Source: Escherichia phage HP3.2. From it: a DNA stretch of 64,000 nucleotides. The position numbers and the translations under genes are program-made. Under the pieces are notes generated by a model, which was given only the letters and a program-made list of their open reading frames with translations, ran no database searches and was not told where the DNA came from. The stretch lies in the sequence record OP978391.1. The stretch is one strand, 5' to 3'. This document shows, piece after piece, positions 39,040 through 41,077 of this stretch. Each line of letters begins with the position of its first letter. The first letter of the stretch is position 1.

Positions 39040-39300
39040 AAGTGTTTGTACGAAACGCCGGGATTCGAACCCGGTTATTAAGTAGTTGACGCTACTCAAT
39101 ATTTTTAAAAGGCCATATCTCGACCATATCCGAACGTTCCGTCAAAAACGCTACTCGGCTTACGGCAAAGATATTTCCTCGAATCGATAATTCGGTGCGC
39201 CGTTTCTGCTGTGATAGTAAAGAGCCAGAACACAGTAAAACTGTGGGAGGAAACTATACTCCAGGGAACATCAGTCCGACGACTTACCGGTAGCGACCCG
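39040..39300 (-). ncRNA. Candidate structured non-coding RNA
   Basis: About 260 nt with no ORF on either strand, locally GC-richer, several stem-loops including a tRNA T-arm-like hairpin CCGGGTTCGAATCCCGG; bounded 3' by the 38971..39001 terminator. Confidence 0.35.
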
Positions 39301-39305
39301 GTTTC

Positions 39306-39656
39306 TTAATATTCTTTTAAAGAATCAATATATTCACGGCGTTTACGCCACAAATCAATTGCTTCATACGCGGATTCAGCATTTCGAATTAGCCGGCATT
39401 TATGTAAAGACTTATGATTTTGATATTGTGTAGATAACGGAATTGTATCTAAAAGGTCTTTACGATCAAAATATTTGTAACCATCTAAACCAAATGAACG
39501 ATTTTTGAGAAATTGCCAATGACCATATTCGTTTTCGACATAAACATAATCTGCATGCTGATAAAGCAAATTAATTACACGTTCAGAAATAACAGTATCA
39601 TTATGATTAAAATAGAATGTTAAATCATGAACTACTAAATAAACATTACCTTTCAT
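39306..39656 (-). CDS. Hypothetical protein
   Basis: 116-aa ORF immediately 3' of the tRNA array. Confidence 0.5.
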   Translation of the reverse strand: MKGNVYLVVHDLTFYFNHNDTVISERVINLLYQHADYVYVENEYGHWQFLKNRSFGLDGYKYFDRKDLLDTIPLSTQYQNHKSLHKCRLIRNAESAYEAIDLWRKRREYIDSLKEY

Positions 39657-39664
39657 ATTTTCCT

Positions 39665-39740
39665 CACTTATAATTGGTCGAGGCAGTAGGGATCGAACCT
39701 ACGACCTAGGACTTAGAAGGTCCTTGCTCTTCCTTCTGAG
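39665..39740 (-). tRNA. tRNA-Arg (anticodon UCU)
   Basis: 76-nt cloverleaf folded by hand: acceptor CGGGGCA/TGCCTCG, anticodon loop CUUCUAA, T-loop GGTTCGATCC, encoded CCA. Confidence 0.8.
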
Positions 39741-39744
39741 CTAT

Positions 39745-39820
39745 GCCCCGTAATTGGGGTGACCGATGGGAGTCGAACCCATGACTACGAGAATCACAAT
39801 CTCGAGTTCTACCAACTGAA
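39745..39820 (-). tRNA. tRNA-His (anticodon GUG)
   Basis: 76 nt: acceptor GTGGCCG/CGGTCAC, discriminator C, anticodon loop UUGUGAU, T-loop GGTTCGACTCC, encoded CCA. Confidence 0.7.
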
Positions 39821-39944
39821 CTACGGCCACATTAATACCTACTCCAACAATCAAGATGTCTTCACACGAAATTAAGAGAAGAGTGATCAGTTCAACCCCT
39901 ATAATCGCGTCAAGTAGATATTAATGTGACAGTTGTCACAAATT

Positions 39945-40019
39945 TGGCGGACGTGATAGGATTCGAACCTATAACCAATCGCTTAACAGGCGATCGCTCT
40001 GCCATTGAGCTACACATCC
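39945..40019 (-). tRNA. tRNA-Asn (anticodon GUU)
   Basis: 75 nt: acceptor GGATGTG/CACGTCC, anticodon stem ATCGC/GCGAT, loop CUGUUAA, T-loop GGTTCGAATCC, encoded CCA. Confidence 0.7.
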
Positions 40020-40023
40020 AAAT

Positions 40024-40110
40024 TGGTGGGGAGTGGTGGAGTCGAACCACCCGAGTCGCAATGACAATGAATTTACAGTCCACACCGCTACCTCTACGGG
40101 ATAACTCCCC
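40024..40110 (-). tRNA. tRNA-Tyr (anticodon GUA), long variable arm
   Basis: 87 nt: acceptor GGGGAGT/ACTCCCC, anticodon loop CUGUAAA, variable arm resembling E. coli tRNA-Tyr, T-arm GGTGGTTCGACTCCACC, encoded CCA. Confidence 0.65.
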
Positions 40111-40119
40111 AAATTAATT

Positions 40120-40194
40120 TGGTGGCCCTGGGTGGAATTGAACCACCATCTGGCGATTATGAGTCGCTTGCTTGAACCTTCCAGCTACAGGGCC
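40120..40194 (-). tRNA. tRNA with CAU anticodon (Ile2-lysidine type or Met)
   Basis: 75 nt: acceptor GGCCCTG/CAGGGCC, anticodon loop CUCAUAA, T-loop GGTTCAATTCC; sits where T4 has tRNA-Ile. Confidence 0.7.
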
Positions 40195-40195
40195 T

Positions 40196-40271
40196 TGGTG
40201 CTGATTGACGGAATCGAACCGCCGACCTTCTCATTACAAGTGAGTTGCTCTACCTACTGAGCTAAATCAGC
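40196..40271 (-). tRNA. tRNA-Thr (anticodon UGU)
   Basis: 76 nt: acceptor GCTGATT/AATCAGC, anticodon loop CUUGUAA, encoded CCA. Confidence 0.8.
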
Positions 40272-40276
40272 AAAAC

Positions 40277-40366
40277 TGGCGGAGGCGATAGGATTTGAAC
40301 CTATGAGTCGCCGGAGCGACTGCCGGTTTTCAAGACCGGTGCATTAAACCACTCTGCCACGCCTCC
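40277..40366 (-). tRNA. tRNA-Ser (anticodon UGA), long variable arm
   Basis: 90 nt; sequence GGAGGCGTGGCAGAGTGGTTTAATGCACCGGTCTTGAAAACCGG... matches T4 tRNA-Ser from memory. Confidence 0.85.
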
Positions 40367-40368
40367 AG

Positions 40369-40442
40369 TCTCCGTGGCAGGATTTGAACCTACGACATTC
40401 TGCTCCCAAAGCAGACGCTCTACCAAACTGAGCTACACGGAG
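40369..40442 (-). tRNA. tRNA-Pro (anticodon UGG), CCA not encoded
   Basis: 74 nt: acceptor CTCCGTG/CACGGAG, anticodon loop UUUGGGA; ends 2 nt before tRNA-Ser with no CCA (Pro-Ser dimeric precursor layout). Confidence 0.8.
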
Positions 40443-40452
40443 TAAATTAAAT

Positions 40453-40526
<74 letters not shown>

Positions 40527-40531
40527 AAATT

Positions 40532-40618
40532 TGGTGCGAGAAGTGGGACTCGAACCCACAAGGAAATCATTCCGCAGCATTTTAAGTGCTGTGCCTTTAC
40601 CAATTTGGCCATTCTCGC
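40532..40618 (-). tRNA. tRNA-Leu (anticodon UAA), long variable arm
   Basis: 87 nt GCGAGAATGGCCAAATTGGTAAAGGCACAGCACTTAAAATGCTGCGG...; matches T4 tRNA-Leu from memory. Confidence 0.85.
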
Positions 40619-40619
40619 G

Positions 40620-40692
40620 CTGGGAATAAAGGACTCGAACCTTTGCATCCTGGAATCAAAATCCAGTGCCTTACCAACTTGGCTAATTCCCA
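40620..40692 (-). tRNA. tRNA-Gln (anticodon UUG), CCA not encoded
   Basis: 73 nt: acceptor TGGGAAT/ATTCCCA, anticodon loop UUUUGAU; abuts tRNA-Leu with a 1-nt spacer (Gln-Leu dimer layout). Confidence 0.8.
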
Positions 40693-40789
40693 ATTATTAA
40701 CAAAGGCTCTTAAGCAAGAACCCTTGATGATAGAGGGTATTAATCAGTGCGATATGAGTTAATAATAACAAATAATTCTTAAAGCATAT

Positions 40790-41077
40790 TTACCATTTAT
40801 AATAATACATATTTACGATGCATTCAAGACCCAAAGGATTCTTGAAAATATCATATTCAAGAGGACCTTTTTCTGTTTCAATAAAGAAATCAAAATTTAC
40901 TGTATTAAATTTACGTTCTTCCTTCACTAATTTAACTTGAGAAGATGAACGGTCAATGTAAACCTTTTCAACTTCAAAACATGTTAAAATGCCATAATCA
41001 TCAATCAAAGCTTTAGCCGCGTCTTGATCATATTTATATCCATTTTCAATGGATGATACTTTCGCATAAAGAATCAT
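40790..41077 (-). CDS. Hypothetical protein
   Basis: 95-aa ORF 5' of the tRNA array. Confidence 0.45.
   Translation of the reverse strand: MILYAKVSSIENGYKYDQDAAKALIDDYGILTCFEVEKVYIDRSSSQVKLVKEERKFNTVNFDFFIETEKGPLEYDIFKNPLGLECIVNMYYYKW

Follow-up and report, generated by a model that had tools for sequence, protein, structure and literature searches.

In phage T4, the annotated order of the stable RNA genes is Gln-Leu-Gly-Pro-Ser-Thr-Ile-segB-Arg-rnaD-rnaC, and the slot between tRNA-Ile and tRNA-Arg is held by segB, a gene of 666 nt that codes for a homing endonuclease of the GIY-YIG type. The tRNA-Tyr and tRNA-Asn of phage T2L were described as early as 2008, together with the findings that SegB has its preferred cleavage site inside this tRNA-Asn and that SegB homing excludes tRNA-Met, Tyr, Asn and Arg, in a region that was termed non-essential for phage development (PMC2330249). 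Extra tRNAs have been annotated in hundreds of Tequatrovirus genomes, and their absence from T4 found its explanation, in 2008, in the homing of segB.

Published and ongoing work deals with phage tRNAs that serve against defences cleaving tRNAs, with T5, T6, PARIS, Retron-Eco7 and Septu as its cases. It was shown in 2026 by Chihara et al. that the tRNA-Tyr of T6 counters Septu, a system that T4 is unable to escape, and also that Septu cuts T6 tRNA-Tyr and host tRNA-Tyr alike (PMC13096335). The phage molecule being itself a substrate, protection therefore needs over-expression or amplification. In a similar way the tRNA-Tyr of T5 and of SP15 counters Retron-Eco7 (PMC11555353). For AriB, of the PARIS system, tRNA-Asn(GUU) is a secondary target, which is cut in the anticodon stem, between C40 and C41; U39 is critical in the related target tRNA-Lys, and the nuclease also reads distal positions of the tRNA (PMC12409363). 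The tRNA-Asn of T5 contributes to rescue from PARIS, being needed in some phages only, and the phage Bas34 has a tRNA-Asn of its own that is insufficient (PMC12409363).

A segB-free form of the T-even tRNA cluster

The window, by which we mean the whole stretch of 64,000 nucleotides that was analysed (record OP978391.1), carries the segB-free form of this T-even cluster, in the Tequatrovirus HP3, which it matches at 100%, a T4-like phage isolated on E. coli CP9 as its host. ARAGORN, run over the window, finds 11 tRNAs on the minus strand at 39675-40692, exactly the number given by an earlier note made from the letters of the DNA, in the order Gln, Leu, Gly, Pro, Ser, Thr, Met/Ile(CAT), Tyr(GTA), Asn(GTT), His(GTG) and Arg(TCT); Rfam RF00005, with its gathering score of 29, was used for scoring. 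Between Ile(CAU) and Arg(UCU) the same note had placed genes for Tyr(GUA), Asn(GUU) and His(GUG), and there they are, by ARAGORN for the three of them and by Rfam for Asn and His. They class as elongator tRNAs, for which one expects an acceptor stem of 7 bp, U33 in an anticodon loop of 7 nt, GTTCRA in the T-loop and a score above the family threshold. To call them three canonical cloverleafs is nevertheless only partly right: all are called by ARAGORN, but Tyr is weak on generic models and His is without an encoded G-1. Nor are the three genes contiguous, as a conserved structured RNA of 114 nt (39831-39944) parts Asn from His.

The array had also been credited with eight tRNAs of T4. This is correct for the six upstream genes, Gln, Leu, Gly, Pro, Ser and Thr (40196..40692, minus strand, ARAGORN), which are common to T4 at 84-100% identity, but the two others are divergent, at about 61-63%. 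The tRNA-Ile/Met(CAU) at 40120..40194 (minus strand, ARAGORN; 47/75 identical to T4 tRNA-Ile) makes the upstream edge of a variable cassette, and homology to T4 ends inside it, at about 40175. The tRNA-Arg(UCU) at 39675..39750 (minus strand, ARAGORN; 48/76 identical to T4 tRNA-Arg) is the downstream member of this cassette, and shares 97% identity with the Arg gene of bov10K1. Next comes a 116-aa ORF from the list of reading frames (39306..39656, minus strand), a non-T4 part of the cassette that matches phrog_3355 in PHROG with E = 5e-52 and sits between tRNA-Arg and the homologue of rnaD; the tRNA array of Karamvirus is likewise flanked by a phrog_3355 gene. The homologues of rnaD (species 2 stable RNA; 39194..39306, minus strand, 78.8% over 118 nt by BLASTN against the T4 gene) and of rnaC (species 1 stable RNA; 39049..39187, minus strand, 99.3% over 139 nt by BLASTN) follow. 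In the annotation of phage G29, the 3' 94 nt of this rnaC homologue are labelled as a tRNA-Lys(ttt).

The earlier note had rnaC and rnaD standing between the Ile and Arg genes of T4. This was a mistake, for that place is taken by segB, rnaD and rnaC being downstream of Arg; the idea that the trio sits in the rnaC/rnaD position was rejected, since the window has its own, separate homologues of both downstream of Arg and of one ORF. T4 was also looked at for genes identical to the trio, and it is without Tyr, Asn and His. We can understand that T4 is deprived of Tyr, Asn, the leader RNA and His because a mobile segB cassette takes up the slot. The full Tyr-Asn-leader-His block is found in 186 phage records and the T4-type Ile-segB-Arg cassette in 126, with intermediate forms of the slot such as Tyr-segB-Arg (T6 and Pu-Krd-SF3), Tyr-Asn-Arg (bov10K1) and Tyr-Asn-leader-Arg (UFV-AREG1). 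The extra Tyr, Asn and His tRNAs thus make up a form of the T-even cluster that is common and has been described before. In the list of reading frames, the window's cassette holds no homing-endonuclease ORF. By analogy with T2L, the tRNA-Asn(GUU) of the window (39945..40019, minus strand, ARAGORN; RF00005 74.1 bits) is the probable target of SegB homing: SegB would cut inside this gene, and homing would then overwrite the stretch from Ile through Tyr and Asn to Arg.

Comparison of identities across phages makes the trio a mosaic, with Tyr, Asn and His of separate origins. The tRNA-Asn is 100% identical to that of bov10K1, 79% to that of UFV-AREG1 and 57-58% to those of Jiaodavirus and Karamvirus, in contrast with tRNA-His, which is 97-99% identical to the His genes of these two genera. 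That the trio might simply have been inherited as part of the array of Jiaodavirus, which is collinear (Tyr-Lys-Asn-Asp-Met-Gln-leader-His), was rejected for this very reason, Asn being about 58% identical where His is 99% identical.

Demand and defence as probable roles of tRNA-Tyr and tRNA-Asn

We consider it probable that this segB-free cluster is kept with a double benefit, Tyr and Asn both meeting the demand of the phage and buffering it against tRNA-depleting defences, while His stands apart and the shared GUN anticodon is a by-product. The trio would be transcribed along with the rest of the array, matured by host RNases and added to the tRNA pool during infection, where Tyr and Asn would add capacity for two of the three amino acids with the strongest rise in demand. 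Demand was estimated by applying one and the same ORF method to the window and to 50 kb of MG1655. The three highest phage/host ratios for amino acids are those of Tyr (1.77), Lys (1.72) and Asn (1.67); among codons, AAT has the largest absolute excess (+34 per 1000, with TAT at +21.7), in a phage of 35% G+C. The eight T4-type tRNAs read top phage/host codons, AGA, ATA, TCA, GGA, ACA and TTA having ranks 1-4, 6 and 8. His is depleted, at 0.65x, with CAT at 1.0x and CAC at 0.33x.

It would be natural to stop at this point, and to see in the trio nothing more than a supplement of codons and amino acids for an AT-rich phage proteome, without a role in defence. Supplementation was the alternative offered by the earlier note, and for Tyr and Asn it fits well: both are among the three amino acids most enriched in the phage, the absolute excesses of AAT and TAT are very large, the T4-type tRNAs are already devoted to the codons with the highest phage/host ratios, and Asn and Tyr tRNAs recur in the AT-rich chlorella viruses (PMC4810235). 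As a complete account it is nevertheless unlikely, as it leaves unexplained His, the second most depleted amino acid of all. Further, the codons with which G34 tRNAs pair directly are the NAC codons, under-used by the phage (TAC 0.83x, AAC 0.61x), and the excess lies in NAU codons, read by wobble; T4 and many relatives manage without these genes, the tRNA region of T2L has been termed non-essential (PMC2330249), and a defence phenotype has been shown experimentally for the identical tRNA-Tyr of T6 (PMC13096335).

The tRNA-Tyr(GUA), at 40024..40110 on the minus strand (ARAGORN), is of class II, with a long variable arm. It is identical to the anti-Septu tRNA-Tyr of T6 over its entire length (87/87), 95.6% identical to its counterparts in rV5-like phages, about 86% in Felix O1-like and about 82% in T5-like ones, and its variable arm and T-arm are those of T5 tRNA-Tyr without any change; its anticodon loop, CUGUAAA, is the loop of E. 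coli tyrU. Its best match in the tRNA clan of Rfam is tRNA-Sec, with 30.9 bits, under the threshold of that model, and its D-arm is unusual, a D-stem of 3 bp being set 4 nt from the acceptor stem. The labels tRNA-OTHER and tRNA-Pseudo have been given by some annotators to this gene or to homologues; in rV5 the homologue's Cove score is 43.9. Covariation nevertheless gives the cloverleaf strong support, 98.4% of the cells being paired and 12 of the 23 pairs displaying double changes, a level that none of 500 shuffles attained.

The view that the trio may replace host tRNAs and so counter a defence that targets them, which came with the earlier note, finds support for Tyr in its identity with the T6 gene and is plausible for Asn; the unifying colicin E5 idea is not supported. 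The buffering effect against Septu was shown experimentally for the identical T6 gene, and by analogy the tRNA-Tyr of HP3 would buffer depletion of tRNA-Tyr by Septu and by PtuAB of Retron-Eco7. There is a difference that counts against our preferred account: segB adjoins Tyr in T6, whereas HP3 has no segB beside Tyr to drive amplification.

For tRNA-Asn, the anticodon loop CUGUUAA is that of the host, and the difference comes just after: positions 36-41 read UAAGCG, against UAAUCC in the host. Both this tRNA-Asn and that of T5 have G39, so that in the window's molecule the U36-A-A-U39 motif common to AriB targets is lost, along with the C40|C41 context, as expected of a tRNA that evades AriB. 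By analogy with T5, and in view of this substitution, it is plausible that the window's tRNA-Asn counters PARIS, buffering the depletion of tRNA-Asn by AriB, G39 being an indirect predictor of AriB resistance. The likeness to T5 is partial. There the tRNAs that counter PARIS are Lys, Thr and Asn, and the window shares G39 in its Asn but has no tRNA-Lys, and its tRNA-Asn is only 52/79 identical to that of T5. The roles in demand and in defence are compatible, and from sequence alone they would be inseparable. If the analogies hold, the presence of tRNA-Tyr and tRNA-Asn predicts that HP3 should do better than T4-type phages on strains with Septu, Retron-Eco7 or PARIS.

tRNA-His and its leader RNA

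The tRNA-His(GUG), at 39755..39830 on the minus strand (ARAGORN; RF00005 65.1 bits), has G1-C72, C73 and an encoded CCA. Its GUG anticodon is set in a canonical tRNA-His body, with a loop, UUGUGAU, identical to that of E. coli hisR, to which it is identical at 61 of 77 positions overall. In bacteria an encoded G-1 paired with C73 is the major identity element for HisRS; in this gene, position -1 is a T (U). Each of 8 phage His genes, drawn from 6 genera, has a T at this position, and so have 11 of the 17 array-borne viral His genes, as against 0 of the 37 lone, host-type ones; the T5 record also annotates its tRNA-His with a 5' U-1. Searches of the literature found nothing relevant on phage tRNA-His lacking G-1, nor any His-specific anti-phage nuclease, and this loss of an identity element, specific to phage arrays, may be unreported. 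The gene fits neither a role in demand nor one in defence, which counts against the explanation that we favour; it travels as a unit with the leader helix, and its role is uncertain.

Directly 5' of tRNA-His lies a structured leader RNA (39831..39925, minus strand), in which a 14-bp A/U-rich helix closes around two hairpins, its last paired base being position -1 of His. The 114-nt gap as a whole has a minimum free energy (MFE) of -32.7 kcal/mol (z = -4.36), and none of 200 shuffles is as stable. Alifold gives 4 compensatory pairs, and the helix is kept in 7 variants around 3 unrelated interiors; 99% of its cells are paired and 5 of its 14 pairs have double changes, where slid controls reach about 39% paired, counts that are biased towards structure as the helix strands were drawn from MFE predictions. 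The covariance model of the leader scores 115 bits and finds a single copy in the window. A smaller hairpin, UGUGAC-AACU-GUCACA, sits at the 5' end of the gap (39925..39940, minus strand, from the fold of the gap); the alignment has it in HP3 and UFV-AREG1 and not in the Jiaodavirus loci, and among the sequences examined it was seen only in Tequatrovirus. Several other identities were considered for the gap. A degenerate tRNA or a known RNA family was rejected, with no Rfam match at E <= 1, and a promoter was as well, the scan having found none on the transcribed strand; TTGACG, a candidate picked by eye, is not conserved in Jiaodavirus. A similar helix before the first tRNA, Gln, was dropped, being unused in the MFE structure, with z = -1.5. 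The gap before His is a conserved structured RNA that may be unreported. Its covarying helix, together with the loss of G-1, bears on the way phage tRNA-His is processed and charged.

One may ask whether leader helix and U-1 tRNA-His form a special module, the main role of which is not ordinary decoding of His: an element of processing or insulation that sets the non-canonical 5' end, a stable RNA released in the manner of T5 RNAIII, or a decoy for a host factor that binds tRNA. The helix that abuts position +1 of His is conserved by compensatory and G-U changes, around the three interiors and in hairpin-only forms; over three genera the unit stays 97-99% conserved, which the neighbouring tRNAs do not; UFV-AREG1 has kept the leader without His; the excess of T at -1 in array-borne genes goes in the same direction, and His is not in demand. 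The closest parallel is T5 RNAIII, a stable RNA of 106 nt, similar in size, which lies directly 5' of the U-1 tRNA-His of T5 and is built alike, with internal hairpins enclosed by a long closing helix. The leader has no detectable homology with it, however: a global alignment yields 52/106, without sequence similarity, and the leader's covariance model has no match in the T5 locus. In T5 the helix stops 3 nt short of U-1, whereas that of the window includes U-1, and it is only in T5 that stable accumulation is annotated. A literature search on T5 RNAIII found nothing relevant.

Other observations speak against such a module. According to the T5 record, its U-1 tRNA-His turns into an effective amber suppressor, so that a U-1 tRNA-His can work in translation, and the bias of the pair counts noted above weakens the case of the helix. 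Nor is a long leader the universal partner of a U-1 His gene, as four such genes have a gap of at most 34 nt to the upstream tRNA, among which L029 and L033 keep the hairpin-only form and L077 and L096 give no match to the covariance model. On balance we think it quite unlikely that the main role lies outside ordinary decoding. We give an equally small chance to the more specific proposal, that leader helix and U-1 tRNA-His make a conserved phage-specific module through which the tRNA-His escapes or decoys a host factor. That factor would recognize the G-1:C73 end or the GUG anticodon of tRNA-His, and the module would yield a tRNA-His whose 5' end is non-bacterial, and perhaps a small RNA released with it. 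Were this true, the range of the module would be that of enterobacterial T4-like phages, with RNAIII and tRNA-His of T5 as its parallel, and the His gene would have an anti-defence role unrelated to codon demand.

Cassette exchange, GUN anticodons and known systems

The slot is a place of exchange, and its content might be near-neutral cargo, set mainly by horizontal transfer and by cassette replacement that homing endonucleases drive. There are at least five alternative arrangements at this one slot among close relatives; the homology break falls inside tRNA-Ile, with divergent alleles of Ile and Arg; SegB targets the 3' ends of tRNAs and is enriched near them (PMC2330249; PMC13096335); and the three genes are of mosaic origin. 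Still, cargo of this kind would hardly display intact, covarying cloverleafs, with near-identical sequence over hundreds of isolates, nor a leader helix maintained through compensatory changes, and the gene of T6 has a functional phenotype (PMC13096335). We therefore find near-neutrality even less likely than the module.

There remains the anticodon class. Colicin E5 cleaves tRNA-Tyr, -His, -Asn and -Asp, with YGUN as its determinant and no need for modification (PMC1635277), and a link between E5 and coliphage tRNAs had already been raised in eLife in 2023 (PMC10264068). The earlier note saw in the trio queuosine-family tRNAs, of the kind that E5-type nucleases cleave, which may counter a host defence or toxin. 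Taken in full, this makes the trio a coordinated answer to a nuclease that cuts Tyr, His, Asn and Asp at 34/35, the phage copies either resisting or replacing. All three anticodons are indeed GUN, three of the four substrates are present, and a naive, post-hoc estimate, drawn from the 12 amino acids that T4 leaves uncovered, gives about a 2% chance that three random additions fall in the set. An adjacent Asn-Tyr-Asp run is present in Felix O1-like phages and the complete set of four GUN tRNAs in Jiaodavirus, and this is the sole explanation offered that covers tRNA-His.

The detail of the loops does not follow. The Y33-G/Q34-U35-N36 motif is intact in CUGUAAA, CUGUUAA and UUGUGAU, and mutations of the anticodon loop, the signature of resistance in the model of van den Berg et al. 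2023, are absent from the three 7-nt loops, which are those of E. coli, the differences being confined to the stems. With loops identical to the host's and an intact YGUN, these tRNAs are therefore predicted substrates of E5 rather than resistant variants. Colicin E5 itself reaches the cell from outside, as a bacteriocin, and is not a defence triggered by phage. As E5 cleaves unmodified minihelices, hypomodification would not protect them either (PMC1635277). The known defences against Tyr and Asn cut elsewhere, in tRNA-Tyr's variable loop (PMC13096335), not at Q34-U35, and at the C40/C41 step of tRNA-Asn. Asp is missing from the window, the three genes differ in origin, and related Tequatroviruses carry Tyr alone or Tyr with Asn. 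The larger T4-like arrays have Lys, Met and Gln genes set among their GUN tRNAs, and a general clustering of GUN tRNAs was borderline only: over 27 arrays chosen for containing His, 15 adjacencies were observed against 10.3 +/- 2.5 expected, with P = 0.05 when kinship is ignored. A coordinated answer to an E5-type nuclease is thus very unlikely; the likeness to E5 substrates is one of anticodon class only, and that all three have a GUN anticodon most likely follows, as a by-product, from which phage tRNAs circulate and are retained.

The account that we prefer, a segB-free cluster with useful Tyr and Asn genes and His apart, is best seen against the T-even clusters with which we began. T4 has in common with the window the six upstream tRNAs, rnaC (99%), rnaD (79%) and the flanking ORFs trna.2-trna.4; it differs by segB, in place of Tyr, Asn, the leader and His, by its Ile and Arg alleles and by the lack of the 116-aa ORF after Arg. 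T6 shares the backbone, with Gln, Leu, Gly, Thr, Met, Tyr and segB, the latter coming after Tyr, as in Pu-Krd-SF3 and unlike the window. T2L has the same backbone too, with Gln, Leu, Gly, Pro, Ser, Met(Ile), Tyr, Asn and Arg (PMC2330249). To what T2L and T6 possess, the window adds a leader RNA and a tRNA-His, between Asn and Arg.

A cassette distinct from that of T4

ARAGORN calls eleven minus-strand tRNA genes within 39675-40692, arranged as Gln, Leu, Gly, Pro, Ser, Thr, Met/Ile(CAT), Tyr, Asn, His and Arg. The Tyr-GUA, Asn-GUU and His-GUG genes that the earlier note had placed between Ile and Arg are all there: tRNA-Tyr(GTA) at 40024-40110, tRNA-Asn(GTT) at 39945-40019 and tRNA-His(GTG) at 39755-39830. 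The region matches that of Escherichia phage HP3 (Tequatrovirus) at 100% identity, and coverage of 39400-41000 reaches 80% or more in 258 phage records, which in most cases have these tRNAs annotated, so that this is no chance pattern and the three extra tRNAs are genuine. Their description as canonical cloverleafs holds for Asn (74.1 bits with the Rfam tRNA model) and for His (65.1 bits) save for its position -1 (39831), which is T and not the G encoded by E. coli hisR. It holds less well for Tyr, which has an odd D-arm: ten of the eleven tRNAs score 60-74 bits, and the best tRNA-clan match of tRNA-Tyr is tRNA-Sec, at 30.9 bits, under the threshold of that model.

The T4 stable RNAs C and D had been placed between Ile and Arg. 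The T4 record reads Gln-Leu-Gly-Pro-Ser-Thr-Ile-segB-Arg-rnaD-rnaC, which rules them out of a slot occupied by segB, a GIY-YIG homing endonuclease gene. Coming from upstream, BLAST homology between window and T4 stops near 40175, inside tRNA-Ile, and restarts only at 39306-38966, where the window has its homologues of rnaD (39194-39306, minus strand, 79% to T4) and rnaC, or species 1 RNA (39049-39187, minus strand, 99%). Identity to T4 is 84-100% for the six upstream tRNAs, whereas tRNA-Ile(CAU) (40120-40194, minus strand) and tRNA-Arg(TCT) (39675-39750, minus strand) are divergent alleles, with 47/75 and 48/76 identities (about 61-63%). The break inside Ile, together with this divergence, argues that the stretch from Ile to rnaD is an alternative cassette, rather than the T4 arrangement with an insert. 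A hypothetical 116-aa ORF of phrog_3355 (39306-39656, minus strand) separates tRNA-Arg from the rnaD homologue and is not found in T4 at the corresponding position; the tRNA array of Karamvirus vB_VIPECLOM01 is also flanked by a phrog_3355 gene. In phage G29, the 3' 94 nt of the rnaC homologue (2150-2243 of its locus L002) are annotated as 'tRNA-Lys(ttt)', which ARAGORN calls in that record but does not recover from the window; probably a stable RNA resembling a tRNA has been mistaken for one.

Variants and ancestry of the block

The Tyr-Asn-gap-His block is complete in 186 phage records and the T4-type Ile-segB-Arg cassette is found in 126, while close relatives show intermediate orders: Tyr-Asn-Arg (bov10K1), Tyr-Asn-Arg with the structured leader of tRNA-His kept before Arg (UFV-AREG1), or Tyr-segB-Arg (Pu-Krd-SF3 and T6). 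Elsewhere in these arrays, bov10K1 (L003 630-1238) carries a homing endonuclease gene at the position of the window's tRNA-Pro, and T6 (L009 469-968) has neither Pro nor Ser. The T2L cluster, devoid of segB, has Met(Ile)-Tyr-Asn-Arg; the 27-bp site preferred by SegB lies within its tRNA-Asn gene, and about 1250 bp with tRNA-Met, Tyr, Asn and Arg are replaced during SegB homing (Brok-Volchanskaya et al., 2008, PMC2330249). The lack of these tRNAs in T4 is therefore a documented result of segB invasion, and the gene order of the window reads as the state not invaded by segB, to which, unlike in T2L, a His unit is added.

It is worth emphasizing how unequal the relationships of the three genes are. 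The window's tRNA-Tyr is identical to that of T6 (87/87), 95.6% identical to the rV5-like gene, and about 86% and 82% to its Felix O1-like and T5-like counterparts; His with its leader shares 97-99% identity with Jiaodavirus and Karamvirus; Asn shows 57-58% to the Asn of these two genera and 79% to that of another Tequatrovirus. Such figures point to a mosaic of genes differing in ancestry, rather than to one inherited or co-acquired unit.

Defence, codon demand and anticodon nucleases

The D-arm of tRNA-Tyr, with an invariant 3-bp D-stem located 4 nt from the acceptor stem, is common to the tRNA-Tyr lineage of T4-like, rV5-like, Felix O1-like and T5-like phages, and it accounts for the low generic scores and for the 'Pseudo' or 'OTHER' labels of some GenBank records. 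Taken over nine sequences, pairing in the cloverleaf amounts to 98.4%, with double changes in 12 of 23 pairs; 0/500 shuffles reach this value, and slid versions are 45-56% paired. The T6 tRNA-Tyr, identical to the window's, is expressed and active (Chihara et al., 2026, PMC13096335). This phage tRNA is functional, despite its low covariance-model scores. Septu Ec-B88 restricts T6 by cutting tRNA-Tyr within its variable loop; infection is rescued by over-expression of the T6 tRNA-Tyr or by its SegB-driven amplification, removal of the tRNA-rich region sensitises T6, and T4, which has no tRNA-Tyr, is unable to escape (PMC13096335). Retron-Eco7 is likewise neutralised, depending on expression level, by the tRNA-Tyr of T5 and SP15 (Azam et al., 2024, PMC11555353), and the resistance of the T5 molecule has been attributed to its distinctive variable loop (PMC13096335); its variable arm is the same as that of the window's tRNA-Tyr. 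As for Asn, tRNA-Asn(GUU) is a secondary target of PARIS AriB, a UAAU motif at positions 36-39 is common to the AriB targets, U39 is critical in the target tRNA-Lys, and T5 tRNA-Asn contributes to rescue (Belukhina et al., PMC12409363). Positions 36-41 read UAAGCG in the window vs UAAUCC in the host, so that G39 of the anticodon stem, also present in the T5 tRNA-Asn, abolishes the motif; by analogy, an anti-defence replacement role of this tRNA is plausible. No anti-phage system specific for tRNA-His was found in the literature searched. The proposal of replacement tRNAs countering a host tRNA-targeting defence survives in spirit for Tyr, through the identical T6 gene, and plausibly for Asn; an E5-type nuclease as the opponent is not supported.

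Codon supplementation, the other role suggested, also divides the trio. When codons are counted by one and the same crude ORF method in the window (68 ORFs, 17,030 codons) and in 50 kb from MG1655, the top phage/host amino-acid ratios are those of Tyr (1.77), Lys (1.72) and Asn (1.67), AAT having the largest absolute codon excess (+34 per 1000; TAT, +21.7), whereas only one amino acid is more depleted than His (0.65; CAT 1.0x, CAC 0.33x). Demand accounts for Tyr and Asn, not for His; demand and defence are mutually compatible, and inseparable by sequence alone.

That the trio is a joint answer to a colicin E5-type nuclease cutting GUN anticodons, a link proposed earlier for coliphage tRNAs (van den Berg et al., 2023, PMC10264068), is not supported, even if Felix O1-like phages do have an adjacent Asn-Tyr-Asp run: the determinant of E5 is Y33-G34-U35-N36, and E5 cuts unmodified minihelices completely (Ogawa et al., 2006, PMC1635277), yet the phage loops CUGUAAA, CUGUUAA and UUGUGAU (Tyr, Asn, His) are those of the host, with this determinant intact, making the three tRNAs predicted E5 substrates devoid of resistance-type changes; tRNA-Asp is absent from the window array, relatives have Tyr alone or Tyr with Asn, and larger T4-like arrays mix other tRNAs between the GUN ones. 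Permutation of 27 distinct arrays, chosen for containing His and with kinship between them ignored, gives an expectation of 10.3 +/- 2.5 adjacent GUN pairs, vs 15 observed (P = 0.05), a borderline outcome. The Felix O1-like run, which surrounds a homologue of the window's tRNA-Tyr in tootiki (L015 61-314) and Moogle (L017 59-316), means that there may be a weak tendency of this kind.

tRNA-His and its leader

T-1 together with G1-C72 and C73 recurs in all eight phage His genes compared, which represent six genera and differ in upstream context. Among 17 distinct array-borne viral His genes, 11 have T-1 and six G-1; the viral-contig sample also has 37 lone or near-lone genes, for the most part of host type and located at prophage borders, and all 37 have G-1. 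G-1 is well established as the major HisRS determinant (PMC9976931); no paper on how a U-1 phage tRNA-His is processed and charged was found in the literature searched. The upstream tRNA lies at a median distance of 93.5 nt from U-1 genes (n=16) and of 27 nt from G-1 genes (n=5). Since the gap does not exceed 34 nt in four of the U-1 genes, a long leader is not universal.

In the window, the 114-nt gap between tRNA-Asn and tRNA-His (39831-39944, minus strand) folds at -32.7 kcal/mol (z = -4.36; 0/200 shuffles equally stable), and about 98 nt of it accompany His in Jiaodavirus and Karamvirus, with 82-91% conservation. Modelling makes it a conserved structured RNA, the consensus having two hairpins inside a 14-bp A/U-rich closing helix whose final paired base is position -1 of His. 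Seven variants keep an uninterrupted helix of 14-15 bp around three unrelated interiors, and hairpin-only forms of 33-35 nt occur in other contigs, which makes the helix the conserved core and the interior a variable insertion. Across the seven, 99% of cells are paired, with double changes in 5/14 pairs and slid controls about 39% paired, counts biased towards structure by the choice of strands from MFE predictions. Compensatory changes span Tequatro-, Jiaoda- and Karamvirus, and the G-U pairs of the helix, being A-C mismatches on the opposite strand, argue for selection on the tRNA-sense RNA. Searched with a covariance model of the leader, the window yields one copy, and T4, T6, bov10K1 and T5 yield none; no Rfam family matched. 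E. coli RNase III is reportedly involved in T4 tRNA maturation (PMC4810235), which makes RNA processing one candidate role that we may infer for the helix.

What is stated about these tRNAs had been published before, the comparison first drawn with T4 was wrong, and the E5 unification is unsupported; modest curiosities, possibly unreported, are found in the leader helix and in the U-1 tRNA-His. They have a parallel in T5. While homology to the leader is not detectable, T5 RNAIII, 106 nt long and recorded as a 'stable RNA with unknown functions', shares the architecture of a closing helix with it, as well as the position directly 5' of tRNA-His. That tRNA, annotated as 78 nt with a 5' U, shares the -1 base of the window's, and the T5 record notes that an effective amber suppressor can be made from it, so that a U-1 tRNA-His evidently works in translation.
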